NCBI GenBank assembly: GCA_028288625.1
Contig: JAQBNI010000049.1
Location: forward strand, 771-64,770
DNA length: 64,000 nt
From: Bacteroidota bacterium
GTDB taxonomy: Bacteria; Bacteroidota; Bacteroidia; Chitinophagales; JADIYW01
Direction: 5' to 3'
Shown: positions 13,699-64,000 of the stretch, one piece after another
How the letters are laid out: every line of letters starts with the position of its first letter
How positions within the stretch are numbered: position 1 is the stretch's first letter
The notes under the pieces: generated by a model
Database searches by the model: none
Seen by the model: the letters and a program-made list of their open reading frames with translations, nothing else
What the model was told of the DNA's origin: nothing
Position numbers and translations under genes: made by a program

Positions 13699-15336
13699 AT
13701 GCCAAATAAGATCGCACAAATACCGATGCCGCAAAACGAGCCTATTATGGGTTATATGCCTGGCAGCAAGGAACGTAAGGAGTTGAAAGATGAATTGAAA
13801 AGGAGGAAGTCAATGGTGATTGATATCCCGATGTTCATCAACGGAAAGGAAGTTCATACGCAGGATACTGTTGAAATATTTCCACCCCATGATCTCTCTC
13901 ATAAAATTGCAACTTGCCACAAAGGAAAAAGTGAGCATGTTTCAAAAGCGATCGAAGCTGCGTTAAATGCGCGGGAGAAATGGGCGAACATGCATTGGGA
14001 AGATCGCGCAAGTATTTTTTTAAAAGCGGCGGATCTCATTTCAGGTCCATATCGCTCTTCGATCAATGCGGCAACGATGCTCGGTCAATCCAAAAATGTT
14101 TACCAGGCAGAAATTGATGCGGTATGCGAGCTCGCCGATTTCTTGCGATTCAATGTTTACTTTGCTTCAAAGATCTACAGCGAACAACCCGTCTCTGCAC
14201 CCAACATCCGCAATACCTTAGAATACAGACCTCTTGAAGGATTTGTATATGCGGTGACGCCATTTAATTTTACGGCAATTTCCGGAAACTTACCCGCAGC
14301 GCCTGCAATCATGGGAAATGTGGTGGTGTGGAAGCCATCTTCCGTGCAGGTTTATTCTGCATGGACGATCATGCAAATTTTGCGTGAAGCGGGATTGCCG
14401 GATGGCGTGATCAATATGATCTCTACCAATGCAGCAGAAACTTCCAACATCATTTTATCTCACCCTGATTTTGCAGGGGTACATTTTACAGGCTCTACAC
14501 CGGTGTTTAATGGTATCTGGAAAACAGTTGGAGATAATATCAGCTTGTATAAAAATTTTCCGCGTATTGTTGGAGAAACCGGCGGAAAAGATTTTATTCT
14601 TGCACATAAAAGCGCGGATATAGATGTCCTCGCGACTGCCATACTTCGCGGCGCATTTGAGTACCAGGGACAAAAATGCAGTGCGTGTTCACGCGCGTAT
14701 ATTCCAAAATCGATCTGGGATCAGACATGGGAAAAAATGTATGAAGCATTGAAGACTTTTAAAGTAGGAGATGTGGAAGATTTTTCAGTGATGATGGGCG
14801 CAGTGATCTCTGAAGATGCGTACAAAAAAATAACAAGATATATTATAGATGCAAAAGCAAACCCGAATAATATTATTATGTACGGCGGCGGATATGATAA
14901 AAAGAAAGGCTATTTCATTGAGCCGACAGTTATACTAACGAAGGATCCGAAATCCATTACGATGGTGGAAGAAATATTTGGTCCGGTGCTGACGATATAT
15001 GTTTATGATGATGCAGAAGTAAGCATGGATAGTATTTTGCATTTAGTGGATACTACATCAAACTTCGCACTCACCGGTGCGATCATTGCGCAAGACAGGT
15101 ACGCGCTGGAAAAAATGAAAAATGCATTGACAAACAGCGCGGGTAATTTCTACATCAACGATAAGTGTACAGGCGCAGTAGTTGGACAGCAACCCTTCGG
15201 AGGCGCCCGTAAAAGCGGTACGAACGACAAATCAGGCAGCCAGTGGAATTTATTGCGATGGGTATCTATCCGTTCCGTGAAAGAAAACTTTGTGCCGCCA
15301 AAATATTACACCTATCCTTACATGAGCGAGGAATAA
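13699..15336 (+). CDS. pruA: L-glutamate gamma-semialdehyde (1-pyrroline-5-carboxylate) dehydrogenase
   Basis: Aldehyde dehydrogenase catalytic motifs (GETGGKD, GQKCSACSR) in a 545-aa PruA-length protein. Confidence 0.88.
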   Translation: MPNKIAQIPMPQNEPIMGYMPGSKERKELKDELKRRKSMVIDIPMFINGKEVHTQDTVEIFPPHDLSHKIATCHKGKSEHVSKAIEAALNAREKWANMHWEDRASIFLKAADLISGPYRSSINAATMLGQSKNVYQAEIDAVCELADFLRFNVYFASKIYSEQPVSAPNIRNTLEYRPLEGFVYAVTPFNFTAISGNLPAAPAIMGNVVVWKPSSVQVYSAWTIMQILREAGLPDGVINMISTNAAETSNIILSHPDFAGVHFTGSTPVFNGIWKTVGDNISLYKNFPRIVGETGGKDFILAHKSADIDVLATAILRGAFEYQGQKCSACSRAYIPKSIWDQTWEKMYEALKTFKVGDVEDFSVMMGAVISEDAYKKITRYIIDAKANPNNIIMYGGGYDKKKGYFIEPTVILTKDPKSITMVEEIFGPVLTIYVYDDAEVSMDSILHLVDTTSNFALTGAIIAQDRYALEKMKNALTNSAGNFYINDKCTGAVVGQQPFGGARKSGTNDKSGSQWNLLRWVSIRSVKENFVPPKYYTYPYMSEE

Positions 15337-52011: not shown

Positions 52012-53091
52012 TCAGTTTGTTTCAAGAATCTTTAACAGCAATTCCTCTTCAGGAGACAATCCCGCTATTCCCGCTTCTGACTCGTTTAATTGTTCCAGGT
52101 ATTTACCAAGTTTTTTTTCTTCATATAATTTCACCACGATGGGATGGACATAATATTTTTTACAAACCGTTCTTGTATTGCCCAGCTGTTTGGCGACCAT
52201 ATCATATACAGCAACGATTTTCCGGTTCTTTTCCGTTTCTGATTCAAAATTTTCAACTTCTTTAAAACCTAAAATTGCCTGTACAGTGCCAGCCCATGTA
52301 CGGAAATCTTTTGCAGTAAAATCGCCGCTTGAAATAGTACGAATATATTCATTCACCATACCGGATTCCACATTATGCACGGCTCCGTTTTCATCGAGGT
52401 AGGTAAATAATTCTTTACCGGGAATTTCTTTGCATCCTTTTACAATGTTTGCCAGGCGCCGGCTTCTAAGGTCGATCTGGTGTTGCACTCCTTTTTTACC
52501 TTTAAAGGTGAAGACGATCTTCGTTCCATTTACTTGTACGTGGCGGTTCTTCATTGTCGAAAGTCCAAAAGAACCGTAAAGCTTTTCATAAAAAGAATTT
52601 CCTATCCTGATCTTGGTTCGTTCCAGTAAACTCACTACAGCGGCTAAAACTTTTTCGCGGGGAAAGCCGGAAAGCGATAAATGTTTTTCCAACTGCTTAC
52701 GCATCACCGGCAACTGTTTTCCGAATTCGAGCAGCCTGTAAAATTTAGTGTGGTTTCGTACCGTATTCCATGACGGATGATAACGGTATTGTTTTCTTCC
52801 CAGCTTATCAGTTCCCGTTACCTGAAGGTGACCATTCTCTAATTTGCATATCCATACATTTTCCCAGGCAGGCGGAATCACCAGTTTTTTTATACGCGCC
52901 AGCTGATCTTTATCAGTTAATTTCTGATCTCCCTCCATATAATAAAAAGATGCTCCATCACGTAGTCGCACAAAACCTTCGTCCTGATCGCTGACATATA
53001 CGAGGTTAACTGCCTTTGCAGATTTTGCAGGATCTTTAATTCCTGCACGGAGTGTGCGCTTATTTACACTGATCTCACCTTCCAGAACCAT
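52012..53091 (-). CDS. DNA topoisomerase IB (poxvirus-type bacterial TopIB)
   Basis: IPPAWENVWI, GHLQVTGTDKLGRKQYRYH, and C-terminal catalytic region (TVCKKYYVHP). Confidence 0.85.
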   Translation of the reverse strand: MVLEGEISVNKRTLRAGIKDPAKSAKAVNLVYVSDQDEGFVRLRDGASFYYMEGDQKLTDKDQLARIKKLVIPPAWENVWICKLENGHLQVTGTDKLGRKQYRYHPSWNTVRNHTKFYRLLEFGKQLPVMRKQLEKHLSLSGFPREKVLAAVVSLLERTKIRIGNSFYEKLYGSFGLSTMKNRHVQVNGTKIVFTFKGKKGVQHQIDLRSRRLANIVKGCKEIPGKELFTYLDENGAVHNVESGMVNEYIRTISSGDFTAKDFRTWAGTVQAILGFKEVENFESETEKNRKIVAVYDMVAKQLGNTRTVCKKYYVHPIVVKLYEEKKLGKYLEQLNESEAGIAGLSPEEELLLKILETN

Positions 53092-53428: not shown

Positions 53429-55228
53429 ATGAGGATGAGACATACTATTCATGAAAGTATAACGGGTATTCAAAAAAAGATGATCACTTCCGGTGAATCA
53501 GCGGCGATCTTTGAAAGGATCTCTGATGGATTTTTGATGTTGGATAAAAAATTCCGTTATACATACGCGAACAGGCAGGTAGCAAGAATGACCGGGCGCG
53601 ACGTGGAATCTCTCATTGGAAAATGCTTATGGGAAGTATTTCCCGATATCCAGGATACTTCAACTTTCAAAGCTATTCAAAAGGCTATGAAGGAAAATCG
53701 TTACGTCACAAATACTGAATATTATGCGCCTTTGAAGATCTGGCAGGAAAATCATATTTATCCAACTTCCAGTGGGCTGTCTATACTTATCCGCGATTTA
53801 ACTGCAACCCGTAAGGCACGACAGGAAATAAACGATTCGGAAAAAAAACATAAAGATCTTTTTGATCACAACCCATTGCCGTTGTGGATATATGACCTGG
53901 ATACTTGCCGGTTCCTCGAAGTAAACCATGCTGCTATAAAGCATTACGGATATTCACGAAAGGAGTTTTTAAATATGACTTTGTATGACATCAGGTCCAG
54001 GAACAATTCGAATAAGCTTAAGGAGTATTTTAAAGGGGATTACTATCACGAGACAAAAGTATGGGAACATATAAAAAAGAACGGGGAAACAATTTTTGTT
54101 GAAATTCATTCACACCCTATAAAATATAATGACCATAGCGCAAGGCTCGTTTCTATAAACGATATCACTTTCAAGAAAAAATTTGAAGACGCGCTGCAAA
54201 CAAGTGAACAGCGGTACAGACGAATTGTAGAAACTGCGCAGGAAGGTATATGGACAATAGATGAAAATAACCAAACGAATTTCGTCAATAAAAAAATATG
54301 CGAGATGCTTGAATATCCTTCGGATCAAATTATGGGAGAGAGCTTTCATAATTTTATGGATGCACAAGGCAAACGAATTGCTTCTGCTTTTTTAGTCAAA
54401 GGGAAAAAAGAACAGAATTACAGGTTCGATTTCCGGTTTATATCAAAAAAAGGAAATGTGATATGGACCTCTATTGCAACGAATCCTATTATTGACGACA
54501 AAGGCAAATACAAGGGCAGTCTGGCAATGATCACAGATATTACGGAAAGAAAAAAAGTAGAATTGGAATTACTCCAGCTGAATGATCAGCTTCATCATCT
54601 CAATTCACATTTGCAAACCATCCGCGAAGAAGAGCGGACTAATATTGCCCGTGAAATTCATGATGAACTCGGTCAGCAGTTAACAGGAATAAAAATTCAG
54701 ATCGGTCGGTTAAAAAAAGCAAAATCAGATCAGCCTGAAATTATAGAAAAATCAAATCATATGATCGGTATGGTGGATAATGCAATACGTACCGTTAGAA
54801 AAATAGTAACTGAATTACGACCGGGCATATTGGATGACCTGGGACTTGAAGCAGCCATTGAATGGCAGGCAAAAGAATTTACGGAACGGTTCGGGATCAC
54901 GTGTGTAGTAAAAGCAAATCTTACGCACGAAAATTTTTCTAAAGAAATTAAAACAGCTGTGTTCAGGATATTCCAGGAATCTTTAACGAATGTGGCGCGG
55001 CATGCCAATGCGACGCACGTAGATGTCTGGCTTTATGAAAGTAAAAAGAACCTGTTACTTGAAGTAACGGATAATGGGAGAGGAATAACTCAGGAACAAA
55101 TAAATAACAGTGTTTCATTCGGTATACTCGGGATGAAAGAAAGAGCTGCAATATTGAAAGGTGATTTTTTTATTGAGGAATGTCCGGAAGGCGGAACTTG
55201 TGTAATCTTAAAAATACCTTTGCCATGA
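53429..55228 (+). CDS. multi-PAS sensor histidine kinase (HisKA_3 / HATPase_c, NarL-partner type)
   Basis: Three PAS-like blocks, H-box EEERTNIAREIHDELGQQLTG, N and G boxes (ESLTNVARHA, DNGRGI, GILGMKERA). Confidence 0.88.
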   Translation: MRMRHTIHESITGIQKKMITSGESAAIFERISDGFLMLDKKFRYTYANRQVARMTGRDVESLIGKCLWEVFPDIQDTSTFKAIQKAMKENRYVTNTEYYAPLKIWQENHIYPTSSGLSILIRDLTATRKARQEINDSEKKHKDLFDHNPLPLWIYDLDTCRFLEVNHAAIKHYGYSRKEFLNMTLYDIRSRNNSNKLKEYFKGDYYHETKVWEHIKKNGETIFVEIHSHPIKYNDHSARLVSINDITFKKKFEDALQTSEQRYRRIVETAQEGIWTIDENNQTNFVNKKICEMLEYPSDQIMGESFHNFMDAQGKRIASAFLVKGKKEQNYRFDFRFISKKGNVIWTSIATNPIIDDKGKYKGSLAMITDITERKKVELELLQLNDQLHHLNSHLQTIREEERTNIAREIHDELGQQLTGIKIQIGRLKKAKSDQPEIIEKSNHMIGMVDNAIRTVRKIVTELRPGILDDLGLEAAIEWQAKEFTERFGITCVVKANLTHENFSKEIKTAVFRIFQESLTNVARHANATHVDVWLYESKKNLLLEVTDNGRGITQEQINNSVSFGILGMKERAAILKGDFFIEECPEGGTCVILKIPLP

Positions 55229-55854
55229 TGAAGATTTTAATTGCAGACGACCATGCTGTTGTACGAAAAGGATTAGCCGGTGTGTTAAACGAAGCATTGC
55301 TGGAAGCAGAAATTTATGAAGCTATAGATGGCATAGACGCCATTGAAAAGATCCGTAATGATTTCTGGGATCTTATCCTGCTTGATATTTCTATGCCGGG
55401 AAGAAACGGGATAGAAACTTTAAAGCAATTGCGTGCAGAAGGAATTAAAACGCCTATTTTAATATTGAGTATGCATCCGGAAAATCAATATGCCATTCGT
55501 GTTTTAAAAGCAGGGGCATCAGGGTTTCTGAATAAAGACAGTGCAACGGAAGAACTGATCACTGCAGTACACAAAGTATTGTCAGGAAGAAAATATGTAT
55601 CGGCATCTATCGCGGAAAAATTAGCGGAGTGCATGGACGACAGCGGAGGCAAGGCTTCACATGAGTTGTTGTCTGACAGGGAAATGCAGGTACTGCAATT
55701 AATTGCCTCCGGTAAAACTATATCGGATATCGCTTCTGAAATTTCGCTAAGCGTAAATACAATAAGTACCTATCGCACGCGTATTCTCGAAAAACTTGCG
55801 CTTCACAATAGCGCAGAGCTTACAAGGTATGCCATGGATAACGGTTTAGTATGA
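55225..55854 (+). CDS. NarL/LuxR-family response regulator (REC + GerE HTH)
   Basis: MMKILIADDH..LLDISMPGRNG..K receiver plus LSDREMQVLQLIASGKTISDIASEISLSVNTISTYRTRI HTH. ATGA overlap with the kinase stop. Confidence 0.9.
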   Translation: MMKILIADDHAVVRKGLAGVLNEALLEAEIYEAIDGIDAIEKIRNDFWDLILLDISMPGRNGIETLKQLRAEGIKTPILILSMHPENQYAIRVLKAGASGFLNKDSATEELITAVHKVLSGRKYVSASIAEKLAECMDDSGGKASHELLSDREMQVLQLIASGKTISDIASEISLSVNTISTYRTRILEKLALHNSAELTRYAMDNGLV

Positions 55855-55858
55855 GGCT

Positions 55859-55878
55859 TTGTAGTTGTGTTACTACAA
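55859..55878. promoter_or_regulatory. palindromic operator copy 1 (TTGTAGT-N6-ACTACAA)
   Basis: Starts 5 nt after the regulator stop. The only copy with a 6-nt spacer. Confidence 0.55.
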
Positions 55879-55943
55879 GAGACCATCATATTCATTACAA
55901 AACTTTCACACTTCCAACTATTTTATTTGCTTTATCCCTGGTC

Positions 55944-55951
55944 TATCTTTG
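55944..55951 (+). promoter_or_regulatory. Bacteroidota -7 promoter box TATCTTTG
   Basis: Matches TAnnTTTG. The identical octamer and flanks (TATCTTTGCAAT) recur at 56367. Confidence 0.45.
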
Positions 55952-55954
55952 CAA

Positions 55955-56050
55955 TAGAAATTCCGGAAGATAAAATTGCTGGAAACATAAATCCCCTTCT
56001 TGATTACCCCAACAAAAACAGCGCTGTCTCACAGCGCTGTTTTATTTTTT
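55955..56050 (+). ncRNA. candidate small RNA (about 95 nt) between promoter box and terminator
   Basis: No ATG in the interval. Upstream operator plus -7 box, downstream strong terminator. The 5' end is inferred, not observed. Confidence 0.3.
56018..56050 (+). terminator. intrinsic terminator
   Basis: ACAGCGCTGT-CTC-ACAGCGCTGT 10-bp stem followed by TTTATTTTTT. Confidence 0.85.
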
Positions 56051-56281
56051 AGTCGTCCGACTTATTAGATCTCAATCAAGTTGCTGATGAATGTAATTTG
56101 GCGGGATGGGCGGCTTTTTTGCCGCCATCTCGCCTTGAATCTGCTCATCCTGAACTTGATTTAGGATCTAAAATCTATATTTATGAAAAGTGATTCTGCA
56201 GTCGTGCGACCGCTAAGTAAGATAAGCGCAGGAAGCGATCAGTACGACTTAAGTGAGAGTATTGAATTGCTTCGTAGATCA

Positions 56282-56301
56282 TTGTAGTGGTTCATACTAC
56301 A
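56282..56301. promoter_or_regulatory. palindromic operator copy 2 (TTGTAGT-N7-ACTACA)
   Basis: 113 nt upstream of the 49-codon ORF. Confidence 0.55.
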
Positions 56302-56366
56302 CATGCTTGTTATTAAACTACATTTCTTTCACATTTTCTACTATTTTTTACGGGCATTTAGCACTT

Positions 56367-56374
56367 TATCTTTG
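56367..56374 (+). promoter_or_regulatory. Bacteroidota -7 promoter box TATCTTTG
   Basis: TAnnTTTG match 41 nt upstream of the ATG at 56415. Confidence 0.45.
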
Positions 56375-56414
56375 CAATGCAATTAAATACTAAACATCAT
56401 TAAAAACAACTGAC

Positions 56415-56564
56415 ATGACCAAGTTAAGAAAAATCATCAGAGACATTGTTCGACAGCAATTCGAGTTACAGCAACTGCAACCGCAAATGATACCGGTTAA
56501 ACGCAACGGTGAAAAATTAAACACACCCGTCAATTCCCGAAAGACATTTCCAAAAAACTTCTAG
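56415..56564 (+). CDS. candidate small basic protein, 49 aa (MTKLRKIIRDIVRQQFELQQLQPQMIPVKRNGEKLNTPVNSRKTFPKNF)
   Basis: Below the ORF-track cutoff. Has its own operator, -7 box and two downstream terminators. Confidence 0.4.
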   Translation: MTKLRKIIRDIVRQQFELQQLQPQMIPVKRNGEKLNTPVNSRKTFPKNF

Positions 56565-56606
56565 AAAAATACCCCCACTACCCTTCACAGGAACATGATC
56601 ATCCTT

Positions 56607-56653
56607 AAGTAAGGGAACATGAAAACCCATCAAACTCCTTACTTATTTTTTTT
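56607..56653 (+). terminator. possible first terminator (AAGTAAGG / CCTTACTT, 22-nt loop, T8)
   Basis: 8-bp stem with a large loop, followed by ATTTTTTTT. Confidence 0.4.
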
Positions 56654-56689
56654 ACTGAACAACACAACGGTGTTGTTCAGTTTTTTTTC
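56654..56689 (+). terminator. intrinsic terminator
   Basis: CTGAACAACAC-AACG-GTGTTGTTCAG 11-bp stem followed by T8. Confidence 0.85.
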
Positions 56690-56727
56690 TTCATTAATGA
56701 CCGATGTAATATGCAAAAAATAATAAA

Positions 56728-56747
56728 TTGTAGTATAAACCACTACA
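56728..56747. promoter_or_regulatory. palindromic operator copy 3 (TTGTAGT-N7-ACTACA)
   Basis: 116 nt upstream of the receiver-only gene. Confidence 0.55.
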
Positions 56748-56863
56748 CCATTTTCACAGTATACCCTATTTTTTACCACGCAACGTTGCATTATATTGCA
56801 TAACCCCCACATGACTTAACTGCAGGCTTAACTGCAGGTTAAACCATCACCAAAAGTTGAATA

Positions 56864-57250
56864 ATGAAGATATTAATCGCAGACGACCATGACATCGTAA
56901 GGAAGGAACTAACAGGCTTGCTACAGGAAGAATTTTTTTCTGCGGAGATCCATGAAGTAACTAACGGTACAGATGCTATCGATATGGTGAGAAAAAATAC
57001 GTGGGATCTTATACTTTTGGATATCTCCATGCCATTTAAGAATGGAATTGATACGCTTAAACAAATCCGTGCGGAAGGAATAACTACCCCGGTATTGATT
57101 GTCAGCATGCAGCCATCAGAACAGTATGCGTTGCGGCTGTTAAATGCAGGCGCTTCCGGTTACCTGAATAAAGAGAGTATTACCGATGCATTGATTGCTG
57201 CCGTTCACCGCGTGCTATCCGGACGTAAATACATTTCACAGGCGCATTAG
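56864..57250 (+). CDS. receiver-only paralog of the NarL-type regulators (HTH domain missing)
   Basis: Collinear with 55225-55854 and 63111-63734 up to ...VLSGRKYIS, then stops (QAH*). No HTH remnant is visible downstream. Confidence 0.75.
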   Translation: MKILIADDHDIVRKELTGLLQEEFFSAEIHEVTNGTDAIDMVRKNTWDLILLDISMPFKNGIDTLKQIRAEGITTPVLIVSMQPSEQYALRLLNAGASGYLNKESITDALIAAVHRVLSGRKYISQAH

Positions 57251-57354
57251 GATTAATAAATTCTGTATCTTACATAGTTCGCTTTTTTACAAAGAGAAAT
57301 ACTTTGTCTGCAATTGGCGCGTTTATTGTATATAGTATCGTGAATGATATTTAA

Positions 57355-57738
57355 ATGAGCACAAAAAGAACATTTTTACTGGTAGATGACGATGCCGATG
57401 ACCGGGATCTGTTTTGCGATGCATTAGACGGAATATTAACGTGCGACTGTTACACCGCTATTAACGGTGAAGATGCACTTGATCTCATGCGCAACCAGCT
57501 CAGGGAATTACCGGAAATTATTTTTCTCGATCTTTCTTTACCGCGCATGAATGGCTGGGATTTTCTCCGTACCGTGAAAGAAGATGAAACGTTTAAACAT
57601 ATACCTGTTATTATATATTCGGGCTCTTCCAGTGATGACGACAGGGAATATAGTTTAAACCTCGGTGCCATTCATTATATAACAAAGCCCTCTGATTTTA
57701 ATGAGCTTCGGAACAGGCTGGCAGCCGTACTTGCCTGA
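57355..57738 (+). CDS. CheY-like single-domain response regulator
   Basis: LLVDDDADDRDL, LDLSLPRMNG, ITKP receiver residues. 127 aa. Confidence 0.85.
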   Translation: MSTKRTFLLVDDDADDRDLFCDALDGILTCDCYTAINGEDALDLMRNQLRELPEIIFLDLSLPRMNGWDFLRTVKEDETFKHIPVIIYSGSSSDDDREYSLNLGAIHYITKPSDFNELRNRLAAVLA

Positions 57739-57739
57739 A

Positions 57740-57759
57740 TTGTAGTACTAACAACCACA
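57740..57759. promoter_or_regulatory. palindromic operator copy 4, degenerate (TTGTAGT-N7-ACCACA)
   Basis: One mismatch in the right arm. 108 nt upstream of the next start. Confidence 0.45.
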
Positions 57760-57867
57760 TCAATTTATTAAAATATACTTATTTTTAGCGAGGATATACG
57801 ATAAATAAAAGTCGTATATTAGTACTACTGACGCTACTTTTTATTTTAATTTATTTTTAATCGATCC

Positions 57868-58311
57868 ATGAAGAAAAAGGATATTTATTATATTGTCTTG
57901 GCTGATGATGATGCAGATGATCGTGAATTGTTTCGCGAAGCATTGAATGAAACCCATAAGACAAACTTTAAAACTGCAAAGGATGGTTTATCGTTGATGC
58001 AGTTACTCAAAGATAGTAAGGAATTGCCTGATGCGATTTTCCTGGATCTGAACATGCCGCGCATGGACGGACATGCATGTTTGAAAGAAATAAAAAAAGA
58101 TAAAAAACTTCACGATATACCTGTGGTAATTTATTCCACTTCAAAAAGCCCGCAATATATTGAAGAAACATATAAAGACGGAGCAAGCTTATATATTACC
58201 AAGCCGGATTCTTTTACAAAACTTAAGAAAGTAATGGAAAAGGTCTTTTCCCTCGATTGCGATCATTATGTTCCGCAGCCTCCGAAAAATGAATTTGTGC
58301 TGGCTGTGTAA
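57868..58311 (+). CDS. CheY-like single-domain response regulator
   Basis: VLADDDADDRELF, LDLNMPRMDG, ITKP. 147 aa. Confidence 0.85.
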   Translation: MKKKDIYYIVLADDDADDRELFREALNETHKTNFKTAKDGLSLMQLLKDSKELPDAIFLDLNMPRMDGHACLKEIKKDKKLHDIPVVIYSTSKSPQYIEETYKDGASLYITKPDSFTKLKKVMEKVFSLDCDHYVPQPPKNEFVLAV

Positions 58312-58353
58312 CATACTCCACTAATCCAAACATTCGTGATATTCTCCATTGAT

Positions 58354-58373
58354 GTGTAGTATAAATTACTACA
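58354..58373. promoter_or_regulatory. palindromic operator copy 5 (GTGTAGT-N7-ACTACA)
   Basis: 82 nt upstream of the Crp/Fnr-family gene. Confidence 0.55.
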
Positions 58374-58455
58374 TACCTTTCATAATTTACTCTATTCTTC
58401 TGTAGTTACGGTTAGTATACCTTTGATTAATAATTAACAGTATTAATTTCTAAAA

Positions 58456-59100
58456 ATGGATCATACACAAAAAAATGAAAAGGTCAGAACTTCGAAGTTA
58501 TCACGCAGTCCTAATATCATATTTTCTTATTTTAAAGAGTATTTAACCCGCTATGAAGATTTCAATACTGACGAAATGAATGGACTTGATAAATATTGGA
58601 GTGTAAAGGTCATAAACAAGAGCAATTATTTTTTTAAGGAAGGCGACAATATAGACACTTTTGGTTTCATCATCAGGGGAGCTATGAAATTGATCAGCAC
58701 TTACAAAGATAAAGATGTAGTAACTGCTTTATTAACGGAAGGAAGTTCCTGCAACATGAAAAAAGATTTTAATCCGGGATTTGTATCTGCTGAAAATGCT
58801 TTCTGTATAGAACACACCATTCTCGTAACAATTAAGCATCAGAACATATCAAAACTGATAACTCAATATCCGGTGTTTTCACATTTCTTTTCAGAACAAA
58901 ATGAAAAGACCGGAATATTTTTACAGGAACGCTTGCGCGCTTTCCAGGTAATGTCAGCAAAAGAACGATATGATGAATTCTTTATTCATCATCATGAATT
59001 ATTAAACCGTTTCAATTTGCAGAATATTGCCAGTTACTTAGGCATGAAAGGCGAAACACTGAGCCGGATTAGGAGCGCATCATTTAAAAAAGCCAGTTAG
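58456..59100 (+). CDS. Crp/Fnr family transcriptional regulator
   Basis: cNMP-binding beta-roll (FFKEGDNIDTFGFIIRGAMKL) and C-terminal HTH (LQNIASYLGMKGETLSRIR). Confidence 0.75.
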   Translation: MDHTQKNEKVRTSKLSRSPNIIFSYFKEYLTRYEDFNTDEMNGLDKYWSVKVINKSNYFFKEGDNIDTFGFIIRGAMKLISTYKDKDVVTALLTEGSSCNMKKDFNPGFVSAENAFCIEHTILVTIKHQNISKLITQYPVFSHFFSEQNEKTGIFLQERLRAFQVMSAKERYDEFFIHHHELLNRFNLQNIASYLGMKGETLSRIRSASFKKAS

Positions 59101-59134
59101 TAAAAATATTTTTTAAACGTATAAACCCACAGTC

Positions 59135-59527
59135 ATGAAAACGAAAATCCTCATCTTAAGCATGTTTTTTTTATTTTCCGGAAAAATGAAAGCCGAAAAT
59201 GATCTTCTTACACTAAATACAGAAGTTTTAAAAAGAAACATACCTGATATATCCAGATCAGCGGAAGACCAAAAATTTAGTATTGTTTCTTTTATAGAAC
59301 ATGGTACTAATAATACATCCCGAGTAAAAATCAATTGTGCAGATGATCAATTGTTGAAAATAAGAGTATTTAATATGAATGGAGAAATGGCACGCGAAGA
59401 ATCCTATTTATTGCATGGTGGAGAGTCAGATTTTCAATTTGATTTTAATAATCTTCCAAGTGGTCATTACATGGTCCAGTTTTATACAAAGGATGGCAGT
59501 GCTGTCCGTAGATTTATAAAAATGTAA
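59135..59527 (+). CDS. miniature T9SS-sorted protein (signal peptide + ~45-aa cargo + Por C-terminal domain)
   Basis: MKTKILILSMFFLFSGKMKA signal and CTD LKIRVFNMNGEM...LPSGHYMVQFYTKDG. Confidence 0.65.
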   Translation: MKTKILILSMFFLFSGKMKAENDLLTLNTEVLKRNIPDISRSAEDQKFSIVSFIEHGTNNTSRVKINCADDQLLKIRVFNMNGEMAREESYLLHGGESDFQFDFNNLPSGHYMVQFYTKDGSAVRRFIKM

Positions 59528-59557
59528 TTCAAATGTTTTAAAACCATAGAACTTCTG

Positions 59558-59583
59558 AGCTGACCATATTGGTCAGCTTTTTA
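59558..59583 (+). terminator. intrinsic terminator
   Basis: AGCTGACCA-TAT-TGGTCAGCT followed by TTTTT. Confidence 0.8.
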
Positions 59584-59772
59584 TATATTATTTCTATTTA
59601 TTAAGGTTCTTTATGATATTATATGACTATTGTCACACTCTGCCCATTTAATAAGGCTTACCTTGGTGTTGAAGCATTTTCAAAAATCATTTGGTTTCAG
59701 GTGCAATAGAAATTTCCGGTATGAATACCGGCAAGTAATATTTAAACCGATACAAAAACTAAAACCCCAATC

Positions 59773-62700
59773 ATGAACGAAAAATTGCGAATACTTATCC
59801 TTGAAGATGAAGCATCTGATGCGGACATTATAAAGTGGGAATTGGAAAAAGGCAAAATTCAATTTGAATCTTTAGTTGTTGAAACCAGGACTGAATTTGA
59901 GATAGCGTTAGGCGAATTTCAACCGAATATTATTCTTTCAGACCATTCTCTTCCGGCTTTTAACTCTCTCGAAGCATTGAAACTGGTGAGAAAGATGGAA
60001 GTTAAAATTCCCTTTATACTCACTACAGGAAATGTTTCAGAAGAATATGCAGTAGAAGTTATGCGTTCAGGTGCGGATGATTATATTCTGAAAGACAGGC
60101 TGCAGCGTTTGCCATCTGCCATAAAAAATGTTTTGGAAAAATACCGCTTGGCACATGAGAAAAGCATAGCGGAACAAAGAACGAGGGAAAGAGATGCGAA
60201 TCTTCATGCTATCATTAATAATACAAACGATGTTCTCTTTTCTGTGGATCGAAGTCATCACCTGCTTTGCTTTAATAAAGTATATTCAGATACTGTCTTT
60301 GCAATTACCGGGGTAAGAATAAATGAAGGAGATACCTTTTTTATCTGGGAATCCAATGATACAATTTTAAAAGAATGGGGGCAGTATATTAAAAGAGGAT
60401 TGGATGGAGAGCAATTTGTAACAGAAACCTCCTACGTGTTCAAAGATAAGGTCTTCTTTTATGAAATAGCTATAAACCCTATCCGCAAAGAAAATGAAGT
60501 AATTGGGGTCGGCTGTTTTTCAAGAGATATTACCGAAAGAAAAAATGCGCAACAACAGCAAGCCTTATTATCATCCATTATTAATTCATCAGATGATGCA
60601 ATTATAAGCAAAACCTTAGATGGTATCATCACATCCTGGAACAAAGGCGCACAAATACTTTTTGGCTATACGGAAAAAGAAACAATGGGTCAACATATTT
60701 CTCTGATCATTCCGGCTGACCGGGTAAATGAAGAGGGGGAGATCATTCAAAAAATTAAAAACGGGGGACATGTAAGCCATTATGAAACGGTAAGAAAAAG
60801 AAAAGACAATAGTTTGATCCAGGTATCGCTGACAGTTTCCCCTATTATAGGAAAGACAGGAATTATTACCGGCGCATCAAAGATCACCAGGGATATTACC
60901 AATCAAAAGGAAGCTGAAGAAAAGCTGAAAAACAGTGAAGAAAGATTTCGTGCACTTATGGAGAATAATTACGACGGGATAACATTAAGAGATGAAAATT
61001 TTTCCATCGTATACAGGAACCCTGCTGCCATTACTATGCTGGGATATACAGAAAAAGAAAGTATAAGCAGATCCTTACTGGCTACTGCACATCCCGATGA
61101 TATGATAAGCATTAACACTGCCTTGCAGGCAGTGATGCATAACATAGGAAAGCCTGTTCCGATCACTTTCCGAACGAGGCACAAAGACGGACATTATATC
61201 TGGATGGAAGGAGTAATGACAAACATGCTTCATGATAAAAGCGTAAAAGCGATTGTTTCTAATTTCAGGGATATTACCGAGGCAAGGATGTCTGACCGGG
61301 CATTGCAAAAAAGTGAAGAACGTTACAGGCAAATTGTAGAAACCGCTCAGGAGGGTATCTGGACGGTGGATGAACAGAACATCACTACATTCGTAAACAA
61401 GAAATTATTCGAAATACTCGGATACACACCGGAAGAAATGCTCGGTAAGCCGGCTTTTGATTTCATGGGTGATGAAGCGAATAAACTCGTAACCTCTTAC
61501 ATTGAAAGATGGATACAAGGGATAAGAGAGAATTATGAATTCAGCTATATCACTAAAAACGGGAAAAAAATATGGATCAATGTATCAGCCAATCCGATAT
61601 TAAATTATGAAGGTAAATACAAAGGAGCGCTGGCAATGGTGACCGACATCACACACAGGAAAGAGATGGAAAAGGAACTGGAAAAGACCCTGTATAATTT
61701 CAACATGCTTATTTCCAATATCAATGAAGGATTTTTCTCCATTGATGTAGCTGATAATTTCAAGCCCCTTATCATTTCAAATACATTTGCTGAAATGTAT
61801 GGATATCCTGCCGCTGATTTTTATAATAATTCTAACCTTTGGTTTGAACACATCCATGAGGACGACAAGAAGAAAACACAGGAAAATCTCCGGCTTCTTC
61901 ACAATGGACAAAGTAACTACCATGAACACCGCATTATAAGAAAGGATAAAAGTATTATGTGGGTATCAGGAAATGTAACGCCTACATTAAATGCAGATGG
62001 AATTCTTATCCGCCTTGATGGCGTTATTTCTGATATTACAGAGCGCAAAACAGCAGAAGATAAATTAAAAAAGAGTGAAGCAGCATTGTCGGAAGCGCAG
62101 CGTGTAGCAAAATATGGCAACTGGAATTTTGATGTTATTTCAGATGATCTTACCTGGTCAGAGGAACTTTACAATGTATTCGGTACCGATAAGGATGTAT
62201 TCATTGAAACCCATAAATCTTTTCTTCATTTAGTGGACGAGGAAGACCGTGATTTTGCGCGTCAAACCAGCCTTCATACGCAAAAGACCGGACAGCCATT
62301 CGATATCAATTATCATATTACGACGCCGCAGGGAGAAAAGCGCATCATCCATGAACTCGGGTATGCTGAATGCGATAAGGAAGGCAAGGTTATTCGTTTA
62401 TACGGCACGGCACAGGATATTACGGATCGTAAAAAAGCGGAAACCGAACTACTTGCACTCAACGAACAATTCCGGAATCTTTCCGCGCATTTGCAAACCG
62501 TACGCGAAGAAGAACGCACCAATATCGCACGTGAAGTTCATGATGAATTAGGACAACAATTGACCAGCCTGAAAATGGATATCGCCTCATTGAAAATTAA
62601 GTATGAAAAAGAATTACCGGATATTGGAAGCAAGACAGGATCTATGATAGAGATGGTGAATGAAGCCATCAGTACTGTCAGAAAAATAGTGATCGCCTTA

Positions 62701-63114
62701 CGTCCCGGAATCCTTGATGATCTCGGACTGGAAGCTGCGATAGAATGGCAGGCGAAAGATTTTGAACAGCGCACAGGAATACCATGTGTTTTTACAACAT
62801 CTATTGACAGTGACCGAAAAGATTTTTCACCCCAGGTTAATATCACAGTATTCAGAATTTTCCAGGAGTCACTGACCAACGTGATGCGTCATGCAAATGC
62901 TACTCAGGTTATTGCAACCCTTGAAGAAAATAATAGTACGCTCATGATGGAAATTACGGACAATGGAGTTGGCATTAGTGATGAAAGAAAAAATAACAAA
63001 ACATCGTTCGGATTGCTGGGTATGAAGGAGAGGGCAGCCATGTTACATGGTGAGCTCAAAGTATTTAAAATGCCCGTGCAGGGGACTAAGGTAAATTTAA
63101 AAATTCCACTATGA
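59773..63114 (+). CDS. REC-multi-PAS sensor histidine kinase (N-terminal receiver, HisKA_3 / HATPase_c)
   Basis: N-terminal receiver (ILILEDEASDADI..LSDHSLP), at least five PAS-like blocks, H-box EEERTNIAREVHDELGQQLTS. One PAS block and the kinase core are close paralogs of 53429-55228. Confidence 0.9.
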   Translation: MNEKLRILILEDEASDADIIKWELEKGKIQFESLVVETRTEFEIALGEFQPNIILSDHSLPAFNSLEALKLVRKMEVKIPFILTTGNVSEEYAVEVMRSGADDYILKDRLQRLPSAIKNVLEKYRLAHEKSIAEQRTRERDANLHAIINNTNDVLFSVDRSHHLLCFNKVYSDTVFAITGVRINEGDTFFIWESNDTILKEWGQYIKRGLDGEQFVTETSYVFKDKVFFYEIAINPIRKENEVIGVGCFSRDITERKNAQQQQALLSSIINSSDDAIISKTLDGIITSWNKGAQILFGYTEKETMGQHISLIIPADRVNEEGEIIQKIKNGGHVSHYETVRKRKDNSLIQVSLTVSPIIGKTGIITGASKITRDITNQKEAEEKLKNSEERFRALMENNYDGITLRDENFSIVYRNPAAITMLGYTEKESISRSLLATAHPDDMISINTALQAVMHNIGKPVPITFRTRHKDGHYIWMEGVMTNMLHDKSVKAIVSNFRDITEARMSDRALQKSEERYRQIVETAQEGIWTVDEQNITTFVNKKLFEILGYTPEEMLGKPAFDFMGDEANKLVTSYIERWIQGIRENYEFSYITKNGKKIWINVSANPILNYEGKYKGALAMVTDITHRKEMEKELEKTLYNFNMLISNINEGFFSIDVADNFKPLIISNTFAEMYGYPAADFYNNSNLWFEHIHEDDKKKTQENLRLLHNGQSNYHEHRIIRKDKSIMWVSGNVTPTLNADGILIRLDGVISDITERKTAEDKLKKSEAALSEAQRVAKYGNWNFDVISDDLTWSEELYNVFGTDKDVFIETHKSFLHLVDEEDRDFARQTSLHTQKTGQPFDINYHITTPQGEKRIIHELGYAECDKEGKVIRLYGTAQDITDRKKAETELLALNEQFRNLSAHLQTVREEERTNIAREVHDELGQQLTSLKMDIASLKIKYEKELPDIGSKTGSMIEMVNEAISTVRKIVIALRPGILDDLGLEAAIEWQAKDFEQRTGIPCVFTTSIDSDRKDFSPQVNITVFRIFQESLTNVMRHANATQVIATLEENNSTLMMEITDNGVGISDERKNNKTSFGLLGMKERAAMLHGELKVFKMPVQGTKVNLKIPL

Positions 63115-63734
63115 AAATATTAATAGCAGATGATCACGCGATCGTAAGGAAAGGTGTTATAGAATTATTGCGGAAAGAATTTCCAGGCGCGGAGATATGT
63201 GAAATTTCCGATGGCGCTGAAGCTATAAATAAAGCCAGGGACAACACGTGGGATATTATATTGATGGATATTTCCATGCCGGGAAGAAGCGGAATAGAAG
63301 CGCTTAAACAGATACGGGCGGACGGTGTAAAAACGCCTGTCCTGATGTTGAGCATGCAGCCCGAAGACCAGTATGCCATCCGTGTATTAAAAGCAGGAGC
63401 TTCCGGCTATGTGAATAAGGATTGTGCCACGGCGGAATTGATCGCAGCTGTACATAAAGTATTAGCAGGTCGCAAATATATTTCCCCTGCAGTGAGTGAA
63501 AAATTAGCTGTATCCATAAATGATACCGGAAAGACAGGACATGAATTACTTTCAGACAGGGAAATGCAGGTACTTGAACTAATCGCTAACGGAAAAACTC
63601 TTTCGGAAATCGGTAACGAGATCTCTCTAAGCGTAAATACGATCAGTACTTACCGAGCCCGTATCCTTGTAAAACTGGAACTTCATAACAACGGAGAACT
63701 TACCCGTTATGCGCTGGATAACAATTTGGTCTGA
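63111..63734 (+). CDS. NarL/LuxR-family response regulator, paralog
   Basis: MKILIADDHAIVRKG..MDISMPGRSG plus LSDREMQVLELIANGKTLSEIGNEISLSVNTISTYRARI. ATGA overlap with the kinase stop. Confidence 0.9.
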   Translation: MKILIADDHAIVRKGVIELLRKEFPGAEICEISDGAEAINKARDNTWDIILMDISMPGRSGIEALKQIRADGVKTPVLMLSMQPEDQYAIRVLKAGASGYVNKDCATAELIAAVHKVLAGRKYISPAVSEKLAVSINDTGKTGHELLSDREMQVLELIANGKTLSEIGNEISLSVNTISTYRARILVKLELHNNGELTRYALDNNLV

Positions 63735-63736
63735 TT

Positions 63737-63756
63737 TTGTAGTTAGAATGACTACA
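63737..63756. promoter_or_regulatory. palindromic operator copy 6 (TTGTAGT-N7-ACTACA)
   Basis: 3 nt after the regulator stop and 109 nt upstream of the next regulator start. Confidence 0.55.
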
Positions 63757-63865
63757 CGATTTTGATCATTTGCTCTATTTACATTATTCCGGTAAATATG
63801 TTTCTTTACCTGCAGAACATTCCCCTTGATTTTATTATAGAACTATCTTAAACTTACTTCTAATT

Positions 63866-64000
63866 ATGAAGATTTTAATTGCGGATGATCATGCTATCGT
63901 AAGACAGGGAGTAATGGAATTGCTGCGAACTGAATTTGTTTCTACGGAAATACATGAGGCATCACACGGGGGAGAAGCGCTGGATAAGATAAAGGATGGA
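63866..64000 (+). CDS. NarL-type response regulator paralog, N-terminal 45 codons (3' end outside the window)
   Basis: Manual translation MKILIADDHAIVRQGVMELLRTEFVSTEIHEASHGGEALDKIKDG. Open to the window edge. Confidence 0.8.
   Translation, partial: MKILIADDHAIVRQGVMELLRTEFVSTEIHEASHGGEALDKIKDG

Follow-up and report, generated by a model that had tools for sequence, protein, structure and literature searches.

Introduction

The upstream activating sequence (UAS) of the response regulator GacA, TGTAAG-N6-CTTACA, is found at -75 of rsmY (PMC4950607). At PfhaB of Bordetella, BvgA has sites at -88.5, -66.5, and -44.5, of which the best is farthest upstream and the weakest is next to the -35 element (PMC9708447). 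Here we analyze 64,000 nucleotides (nt) of contig JAQBNI010000049.1 from a Bacteroidota bacterium (hereafter the window), at the end of which six copies (C1 to C6) of a palindrome, TTGTAGT-N7-ACTACA, are embedded in a cluster encoding two histidine kinases (HK1 and HK2) and three NarL-type response regulators (RR1, RR2, and RR3). On comparative evidence, the palindrome is probably a high-affinity operator, that is, the UAS of a GacA/UvrY-like response regulator of the NarL family. To our knowledge, Bacteroidota have very few described transcription-factor binding sites apart from those of the sugar regulators of gut Bacteroides. Literature searches retrieve no paper on the motif or on such a Bacteroidota system, which by itself does not prove absence.

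Six palindromes in the window

A pattern search of the window finds TGTAGT-N7-ACTACA without mismatch at 56283, 56729, 58355, and 63738, a one-mismatch copy (ACCACA) at 57741, and a version with a 6-nt spacer (N6) at 55860. These six palindromes lie within the last 9 kb of the window, compared with 0.05 matches expected from dinucleotide shuffles. The original prediction had placed six copies between 55859 and 63756 and no full copy in the first 55 kb. In accordance, no further copy is present in the first 55 kb at up to one mismatch with spacers of N5 to N10, and widening the spacer to N4 adds a single unrelated match there, at 15042. At up to two mismatches, the nine extra matches in the window are at background level (about 11 in shuffles). 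The copies and their promoter modules are as follows.

55859-55878, no strand assigned: C1 palindrome, TTGTAGT-TGTGTT-ACTACAA (N6), 4 nt after the RR1 stop codon
55904-55951, + strand: C1 promoter module, with TTTCACA (55904-55910), CTATTTT (55918-55924), and -7 box TAtcTTTG (55944-55951)
56282-56301, no strand assigned: C2 palindrome, TTGTAGT-GGTTCAT-ACTACA, spacer in reverse orientation (pattern search)
56317-56374, + strand: C2 promoter module, with remnant arm ACTACA (56317-56322), TTTCACA (56327-56333), CTATTTT (56341-56347), and -7 box TAtcTTTG (56367-56374)
56728-56799, + strand: C3 palindrome TTGTAGT-ATAAACC-ACTACA, with TTTCACA (56752-56758), CCTAT (56765-56769), and -7 box TATATTGC (56792-56799)
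57740-57759, no strand assigned: C4 palindrome, TTGTAGT-ACTAACA-ACCACA, one mismatch (pattern search)
58354-58425, + strand: C5 palindrome GTGTAGT-ATAAATT-ACTACA, with TTTCATA (58378-58384), TCTATT (58391-58396), and perfect -7 box TAccTTTG (58418-58425)
63737-63808, + strand: C6 palindrome TTGTAGT-TAGAATG-ACTACA, with TTTTGATC, CTCTATT (63774-63780), and -7-like sequence TTTCTTTA (63801-63808)

The arrangement around the copies is also as predicted. Four of them start just 3' of the stop codon of a regulator or receiver gene, with gaps of 4, 1, 42, and 2 nt after the genes at 55225-55854, 57355-57738, 57868-58311, and 63111-63734, respectively. The distance to the next start codon is nearly constant, the copies ending 113, 116, 108, 82, and 109 nt upstream of the ATGs at 56415, 56864, 57868, 58456, and 63866. 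The second block that had been described, TTTCACA-N8-CTATTTT, is real: it follows C1, C2, C3, and C5, and weakly C6, and it scores far above background (mean -39, maximum 4.1) with a position matrix trained on other genomes.

Conservation of the element

A search with RR1, taking one genome per species, yields 80 loci (1.27 Mb), mostly from Bacteroidota metagenome-assembled genomes, at 50-72% identity. In this 1.27 Mb, the arm pattern (at most one mismatch) occurs 45 times with N7, three times with N6, and once with N8. In about 40 genomes, the palindrome closely follows the gene of an RR1 orthologue (63-72% identity). When only the 49 loci with at least 63% regulator identity are counted, 38 sites are positioned 3-267 nt after the regulator stop codon, 29 of them within 15 nt. 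A scan of related genomes had been proposed together with the original prediction, and it finds the site next to orthologous regulators across the phylum.

The consensus reads TTGTAGT-RCAAACY-ACTACAA, followed by TTTCAYA, TTT, CCTATT, and a TTTG that stands 48 nt past the palindrome. In an alignment of the element (A1), 40 of 46 sequences, which form the main clade, are free of gaps from the palindrome to the TTTG of the -7 box. In most loci, an ATG 69-74 nt past the palindrome opens a gene for a stand-alone receiver of 130-146 residues. The gene order in the loci L023 and L025 is CHASE-PAS-HisKA_3 kinase, regulator, element, receiver, and then a second receiver or a REC-PAS kinase. Cultured bacteria with the canonical module include Chryseosolibacter histidini PWU4 (L023) and Sphingobacterium thalpophilum (L030).

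An unbiased 19-mer scan of metagenome contigs gives 116 scorable matches, the downstream-module scores of which are bimodal. Canonical scores are found for 27 of the 116, and 24 of these 27 follow a regulator orthologue. Another 14 matches follow more distant orthologues and have a different downstream layout. The remaining matches have background scores, many of them inside long open reading frames (ORFs), and are treated as chance. About three quarters of the exact 19-mer matches in metagenomes are without the module.

Some loci differ in arrangement or target. In L021, two opposed copies of the element (1581-1599 and 1705-1723), 124 nt apart and about 8 kb from the matched regulator, each precede, and are proposed to drive, their own divergently transcribed stand-alone receiver gene. 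A recurrent other target is a secreted protein of about 470-485 residues (L036:5864, L043:10945, L112:2074, and L163:4594), which starts MKK...QNIGINATG..AMLDI.STT.GLLIPRMT..QR.AI and has no Pfam match; in L112 and L163, the regulator upstream of this target looks decayed. Occasional other targets are a PAS protein (L130) and, in Saprospiraceae, apparently non-coding stretches (L004 and L008). In Nitrospirota (L063:10640-10700 and L070:10650-10720), a variant, TGTCGA-ACAAACC-ACGACA, precedes another copy in inverted orientation, and this copy overlaps a TAGAAT-like -10 element. The operator idea seems to reach a different promoter type in that phylum.

Promoter geometry

The -7 box of Bacteroidota sigmaA promoters, TAnnTTTG, spans -12 to -5, and leaders have a median length of 24 nt (PMC9723704). 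Because TTTG is fixed 48 nt past the palindrome, the palindrome would occupy about -75 to -57, with its center at -66. The conserved CCTATT takes the place of the -33 element. When the arm pattern is slid along 38 main-clade sequences, the best non-overlapping match is at +23 nt (6.0 of 12 positions), and at this offset T1, T3, C15, T16, and A17 are nearly invariant. Therefore, the second block (block 2) looks like a degenerate second site centered near -43.

For C3, C5, and C6, the module fits at offset 0, the canonical place, and scores 8.7, 21.1, and 14.9, respectively. The C3 palindrome is the closest of the copies to the phylum consensus, and the geometry of C5 is fully canonical. TAnnTTGY is a known variant of the -7 box (PMC9723704). 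The modules of C1 and C2 fit at +22 nt (score 33.8) and +21 nt (score 31.9), and a remnant arm, in C1 the right arm ATTACA, is left at the canonical -66 place. Therefore, the perfect palindromes of these two copies probably lie near -88, with centers at about -88 for C1 and -87 for C2 of the predicted promoters. Transcription would start 5-7 nt past the -7 boxes, at about 55956, 56379, 56804, 58430, and 63813 for C1, C2, C3, C5, and C6, respectively.

The same regulators could bind the palindrome mainly as a repressor or roadblock, which would, for instance, stop read-through out of the regulator gene upstream or hold the downstream promoter off until dephosphorylation of the regulator. NarL-family regulators can repress. 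In addition, four window copies and most orthologous copies lie 1-15 nt past a stop codon with no intrinsic terminator between, but this closeness can be ascribed to the compact intergenic region of about 100 nt. However, activators classically have such a layout, in which the site is centered at -66 and strictly phased, by 48 nt, to the -7 box; a non-consensus -33 region filled by a conserved degenerate site fits it as well, and GacA and BvgA sites at such positions activate. We therefore regard a mainly repressive role as unlikely.

The candidate binder

RR1, RR2, and RR3 each match Pfam Response_reg and GerE and have full-length Protein Data Bank matches to DesR, VraR, and NarL. The best NCBIfam match is UvrY/SirA/GacA (NF007018), with 157.5, 164.0, and 129.3 bits, respectively, all of which miss the equivalog cut-off of 280 bits. 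RR1 is 33% identical to E. coli UvrY over the full length, and the recognition helices of the two proteins, LSVNTISTYRTRIL and LSPKTVNSYRYRMF, have an S/T-Y-R-x-R core in common. RR1 and RR2 have an identical recognition helix. The three regulators had been described as near-identical; at only 65-70% identity, they are paralogues. HK1 and HK2 carry HisKA_3 and HATPase_c domains, and the same kinase type is found beside the regulators in L023 and L025. The score below the cut-off, the HisKA_3 kinases, and the other half-site and spacer indicate that the regulator is not a member of the UvrY/GacA equivalog.

Over about 60 independent loci, the NarL-type regulator is the sole DNA-binding gene that always adjoins the site, and the start of its recognition helix changes together with the half-site. 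LSVNT (N-type) helices go with TGTAGT/ACTACA. The LSVKT clade goes with TGTAGG/CC(T/G)ACA in eight of eight cases, and acidobacterial VSVKT proteins go with ...GG/CCTACA half-sites. The LSVTT proteins of Nitrospirota go with TGTCGA/ACGACA, and UvrY (SPKT) goes with TGTAAG. Such paired changes are what co-evolution of regulator and operator predicts. From conservation, geometry, and this co-variation, we infer that a regulator dimer binds the inverted repeat near target promoters.

Binding by another protein, for example the Crp/Fnr-like regulator of the cluster (58456-59100), is much harder to reconcile with these data. The Crp/Fnr family binds palindromes of the TGT-N-ACA type, and the CRP consensus is TGTGA-N6-TCACA. 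The outer TGT...ACA of the element resembles Crp sites, block 2 includes TCACA, and C5 sits upstream of the Crp-like gene. However, the spacing is TGT-N13-ACA compared with N10 for CRP, and the neighbors in L023 and L025 include no Crp-like gene. The only constant DNA-binding neighbor is the NarL-type regulator, the recognition helix of which the half-site changes follow. A Crp-like binder is thus quite improbable.

Arms and spacers in a syntenic relative

Two contigs (L203 and L204), reached via a Crp-like homologue (73% identical), match the window in gene order, with 76-81% nucleotide identity to it. Conservation in syntenic relatives had also been named as a check of the original prediction, and L204 keeps five of the six palindromes. 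Between L204 and the window, the arms differ at 4 of 72 positions and the spacers at 11 of 41 (Fisher p = 0.0027). At C1, the arms are identical and the spacer differs; the blocks of the module are kept, and the sequence between them diverges. C3 is conserved from the palindrome onward, with an unalignable upstream flank. C4 is a perfect palindrome in L204, and the next 60 nt are also conserved. At C5, the arms, block 2, and the -7 box are kept, whereas the spacer differs and the upstream flank is unalignable. At C6, the arms are identical, four of seven spacer bases differ, and the canonical TTTCAT is present. Conserved arms with free spacers are the signature expected of a dimeric protein site.

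An RNA element, namely a hairpin whose loop is conserved, located at the 3' end of the regulator mRNA or in the downstream leader and acting as terminator, stabilizer, or protein-binding structure, is highly improbable. The arms can pair, and the fold energies of individual hairpins in the window range from -0.1 to -8.6 kcal/mol. In addition, the loop-like spacer is conserved and oriented, many changes from T to G are compatible with wobble pairing (at the pair that closes the loop, 11 UG), and covariation scores higher than in any shuffle. However, the RNAalifold consensus is only -0.48 kcal/mol, with no structure beyond the hairpin, and 8 of 46 sequences have A.G or A.C in place of the central A-U pair; symmetric arm changes are equally expected from a dimer site. 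The stems are A+T-rich and have no U-tract, and the terminator scan calls none of the copies but does call three real terminators in the region. An Rfam scan of 55000-64000 has no match at E <= 0.1; relaxing the threshold to E = 1 adds three matches (E 0.14-0.29), all far under their gathering scores. C2 is inverted relative to its gene with the downstream module kept, and strict phasing to the -7 box is a property of DNA.

Functionless remnants of a repeat or mobile element, or of regulator genes that were recently duplicated together with flanking DNA, would suit a cluster so rich in paralogues (RR1/RR2/RR3, a truncated receiver, and the HK1/HK2 cores), but can be dismissed with near certainty, because the six intergenic regions share no similarity outside the motifs in an all-against-all blastn comparison and the repeats therefore do not stem from recent duplication, because the arms are kept in L204 while spacers and flanks diverge, and because the element is conserved at orthologous positions across several bacterial classes.

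Points against an operator of the NarL-type regulators

Several observations weigh against the operator reading. One concerns the spacer. At regulator-to-receiver sites, RCAAACY is conserved to the same degree as the arms and has one orientation in 38 of 38 sites (A1 columns 15-21). This pattern is not accounted for by a symmetric dimer model in its simple form. In the window copies and in L204, the spacer is free, unlike at the ancestral regulator-to-receiver site. The conserved spacer may reflect inheritance together with selection for a central A-tract, and an extra contact is also possible. A third half-site, TACAA, behind the conserved spacer was considered and dropped, the most conserved spacer bases being AAAC.

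The other points concern single copies, specificity, and spacing. C4 has no recognizable promoter module downstream, the best score there being -7.4. The distal C2 palindrome is the least conserved copy, its left arm being degraded (CGTAGC) in L204; the C2 module is almost fully conserved there. The correlation between helix and half-site comes from few independent lineages, and three N-type loci have G at arm position 6 on one side. The arm centers are 13 bp apart, wider than for GacA (12) or the NarL 7-2-7 arrangement (9). Finally, the transcription starts are predicted from the -7 boxes alone.

Genes of the cluster

The genes and units of the cluster, all on the + strand, are as follows.

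53429-55228, + strand: HK1, cytoplasmic histidine kinase, PAS x3 - HisKA_3 - HATPase_c (Pfam)
55225-55854, + strand: RR1, REC + GerE (NarL/FixJ-type) response regulator, helix LSVNTISTYRTRIL (Pfam)
55956-56050, + strand: non-coding unit of about 95 nt, candidate small RNA, from the predicted start to the terminator and T-run (terminator scan, fold)
56415-56564, + strand: gene for a 49-residue protein (ORF), with a terminator after it (56654-56681)
56864-57250, + strand: receiver-only protein, truncated RR1/RR2 paralogue with no helix-turn-helix (Pfam, alignment)
57355-57738, + strand: CheY-like single-domain receiver 1 (Pfam)
57868-58311, + strand: CheY-like single-domain receiver 2 (Pfam)
58456-59100, + strand: Crp/Fnr-like regulator, cyclic nucleotide (cNMP)-binding domain (Pfam 25.2 bits, just under the cut-off)
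59135-59527, + strand: 130-residue protein with a type IX secretion system (T9SS) C-terminal sorting domain (Pfam Por_Secre_tail, 28.4 bits)
59773-63114, + strand: HK2, hybrid kinase, REC - PAS x5 - HisKA_3 - HATPase_c (Pfam)
63111-63734, + strand: RR2, REC + GerE regulator, helix LSVNTISTYRARIL, 70% identical to RR1 (Pfam, alignment)
63866-64000, + strand: RR3, third REC + GerE regulator, helix LGITTISTYRAHIL, 65% identical to RR1, runs off the window

Pfam bears out the domain assignments made earlier, and sequence comparison shows that the PAS block said to be common to both kinases is real. The HK1 stop codon overlaps the RR1 start codon (ATGA), and the C-terminal half of HK1, comprising the last PAS domain and the kinase core, is paralogous to HK2. 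RR3 is complete in L001 (3316-3939). A search for autoregulatory sites upstream of HK1 and HK2 finds only background-level matches at up to two mismatches.

Intrinsic terminators found in the terminator scan (56015-56043, 56654-56681, and 59557-59579) bound the transcription units. The strong terminator at 56015-56043 ends the non-coding unit behind C1, which contains two GGA motifs and has neither an ATG-initiated ORF nor an Rfam match. In L204, the promoter, an internal segment, and the entire terminator of this unit are conserved. The unit is a candidate small RNA, the predicted transcript of which would be under operator control. The 49-residue protein has no Pfam match. Its orthologue in L204 has 46 residues and differs by in-frame indels and three substitutions only; therefore, the ORF very likely encodes a real small protein.

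The receiver-only protein is 66% identical to the receiver of RR1. We find no window orthologue of the widespread stand-alone receiver (LKVVTVDDS type), the best matches showing generic receiver similarity of 22-35%. The homologues of the protein encoded at 58456-59100 carry the name Crp/Fnr family, and the terminator at 59557-59579 closes the unit formed by this gene and that of the T9SS protein.

Other features of the region are noted for completeness. A type IB topoisomerase (Pfam Topoisom_I and Top1B_N_bact) is encoded just upstream of the cluster (52012-53091, - strand), and this synteny is kept in L203 and L204. A perfect 12-nt tandem duplication, CTTAACTGCAGG x2, is present at 56817-56840, in the putative leader of the receiver-only gene, where L204 has about one copy. 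The region between the non-coding unit and C2 (56060-56280) is poorly conserved and largely unalignable with L204; it contains a GGCGGC-TTTTTT-GCCGCC hairpin with no T-run.

Discussion

We propose that phosphorylated RR1 and RR2, which have the same recognition helix, would bind as dimers to the arms TGTAGT and ACTACA; RR3 may bind the palindrome too. The operator would be centered about 66 bp upstream of a sigmaA promoter and, at C1 and C2, two helical turns farther upstream, at about -88. A degenerate second site, TTTCAY...CCTATT, with the same 13-nt arm spacing, would lie near -43 and replace the consensus -33 element, and cooperative occupancy of both sites would recruit RNA polymerase. 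We likewise infer which regulator acts at the site, that the effect is activation and not repression, and where transcription starts.

Most Bacteroidota carry the module as a single copy, which separates the regulator gene from that of a stand-alone receiver, and a REC-PAS kinase often comes after this receiver. A primary two-component system would thereby switch on a second signaling layer. In the present genome, the operator has been multiplied, such that two paralogous kinase-regulator pairs would jointly drive six units: the small non-coding unit; the 49-residue protein; the truncated receiver with a CheY-like protein; the second CheY-like protein; the Crp-like regulator with the small secreted protein; and the third regulator. 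The original prediction had the regulators control one another through a shared operator. The comparative evidence is strong for the part of this model in which an operator for GerE/NarL regulators links the cluster. Mutual control is limited: the HK1-RR1 and HK2-RR2 operons have no site, and such control would therefore extend only to RR3, the truncated receiver paralogue, and accessory genes.

The outcome is a precise and testable operator, for which we give the sequence, the placement with respect to the -7 box, and a probable second site. Many Bacteroidota from soil and freshwater encode the regulator family, and variants of it occur in Ignavibacteriota, Spirochaetota, Nitrospirota, and Acidobacteriota. 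The predicted specificity rule, in which Asn or Lys at the start of the recognition helix corresponds to T or G at half-site position 6, ties this family to GacA/UvrY. Transcriptional induction of a stand-alone receiver and a second kinase by one two-component system may be a common wiring, and the present genome would be a natural example of a single site copied into a local regulon.

A bolder and rather doubtful extension is a Gac-like global switch of Bacteroidota, in which two PAS kinases with different inputs act through regulators of the same specificity on one operator code. If so, the code would drive a small regulatory RNA, the 49-residue protein, phosphate-sink receivers, and the Crp-like and third regulators, giving a self-contained, feedback-rich decision circuit. 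TGTAGT-N7-ACTACA at -66 would then define a previously unrecognized regulon across several phyla, and the invariant, oriented RCAAACY of the ancestral site would be the imprint of a further contact, made for instance by the alpha subunit of RNA polymerase or by the receiver protein.

Comparison with known systems

According to the original prediction, no described system with this architecture was known. Precedents do exist: the GacA UAS and the multi-site promoters of BvgA work alike, and the basic module of kinase, regulator, operator, and receiver is widespread. The operator class itself is already known in kind, and the unusual part is the six-fold local multiplication together with the target set.

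Among named families, GacA/UvrY/SirA gives RR1 and RR2 their highest score, and it likewise belongs to the NarL family. The direct targets of GacA/UvrY are rsm/csr small RNAs, which contain multiple GGA motifs and sequester CsrA/RsmA. The GacA UAS is also a hexamer inverted repeat that starts with TGTA and ends with TACA, and it is also far upstream, at -75 of rsmY compared with about -66 or -88 predicted here. In addition, one target in the window, the unit behind C1, looks like a small non-coding RNA. However, TGTAGT takes the place of TGTAAG as the half-site and the arms are separated by N7, with N6 at C1 only, so that the element is related to the GacA operator but distinct from it. The partner kinases are PAS/CHASE HisKA_3 proteins rather than the unorthodox BarA/GacS type (HisKA-REC-HPt), and other genomes usually have a receiver gene as the target instead of a Csr/Rsm RNA.

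The resemblance to BvgA is in the promoter layout. BvgA is also a NarL-family regulator, with inverted-repeat sites about two helical turns apart. The predicted positions here, -88 (C1 and C2), -66 (C3, C5, C6, and all orthologues), and -43 (block 2), follow a similar order, with the best site farthest upstream and a weak site abutting or replacing the -35 element. In contrast, BvgA sites are 14-bp heptad repeats of other sequence, and the canonical center-to-center distance is 23 bp here, on positions derived from -7 boxes, compared with 22 bp.

NarL 7-2-7 sites and the lux and tra boxes of LuxR-type proteins are more distant relatives. Lux boxes are single sites at -42.5. NarL sites have another sequence, with arm centers 9 bp apart compared with 13 bp here. 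Dimers of GerE-type helix-turn-helix proteins bind inverted repeats of 16-20 bp, as proposed for the present system, a parallel that the original prediction also drew. The partner kinase of NarL, NarX, is of the HisKA_3 type, as are the kinases here.

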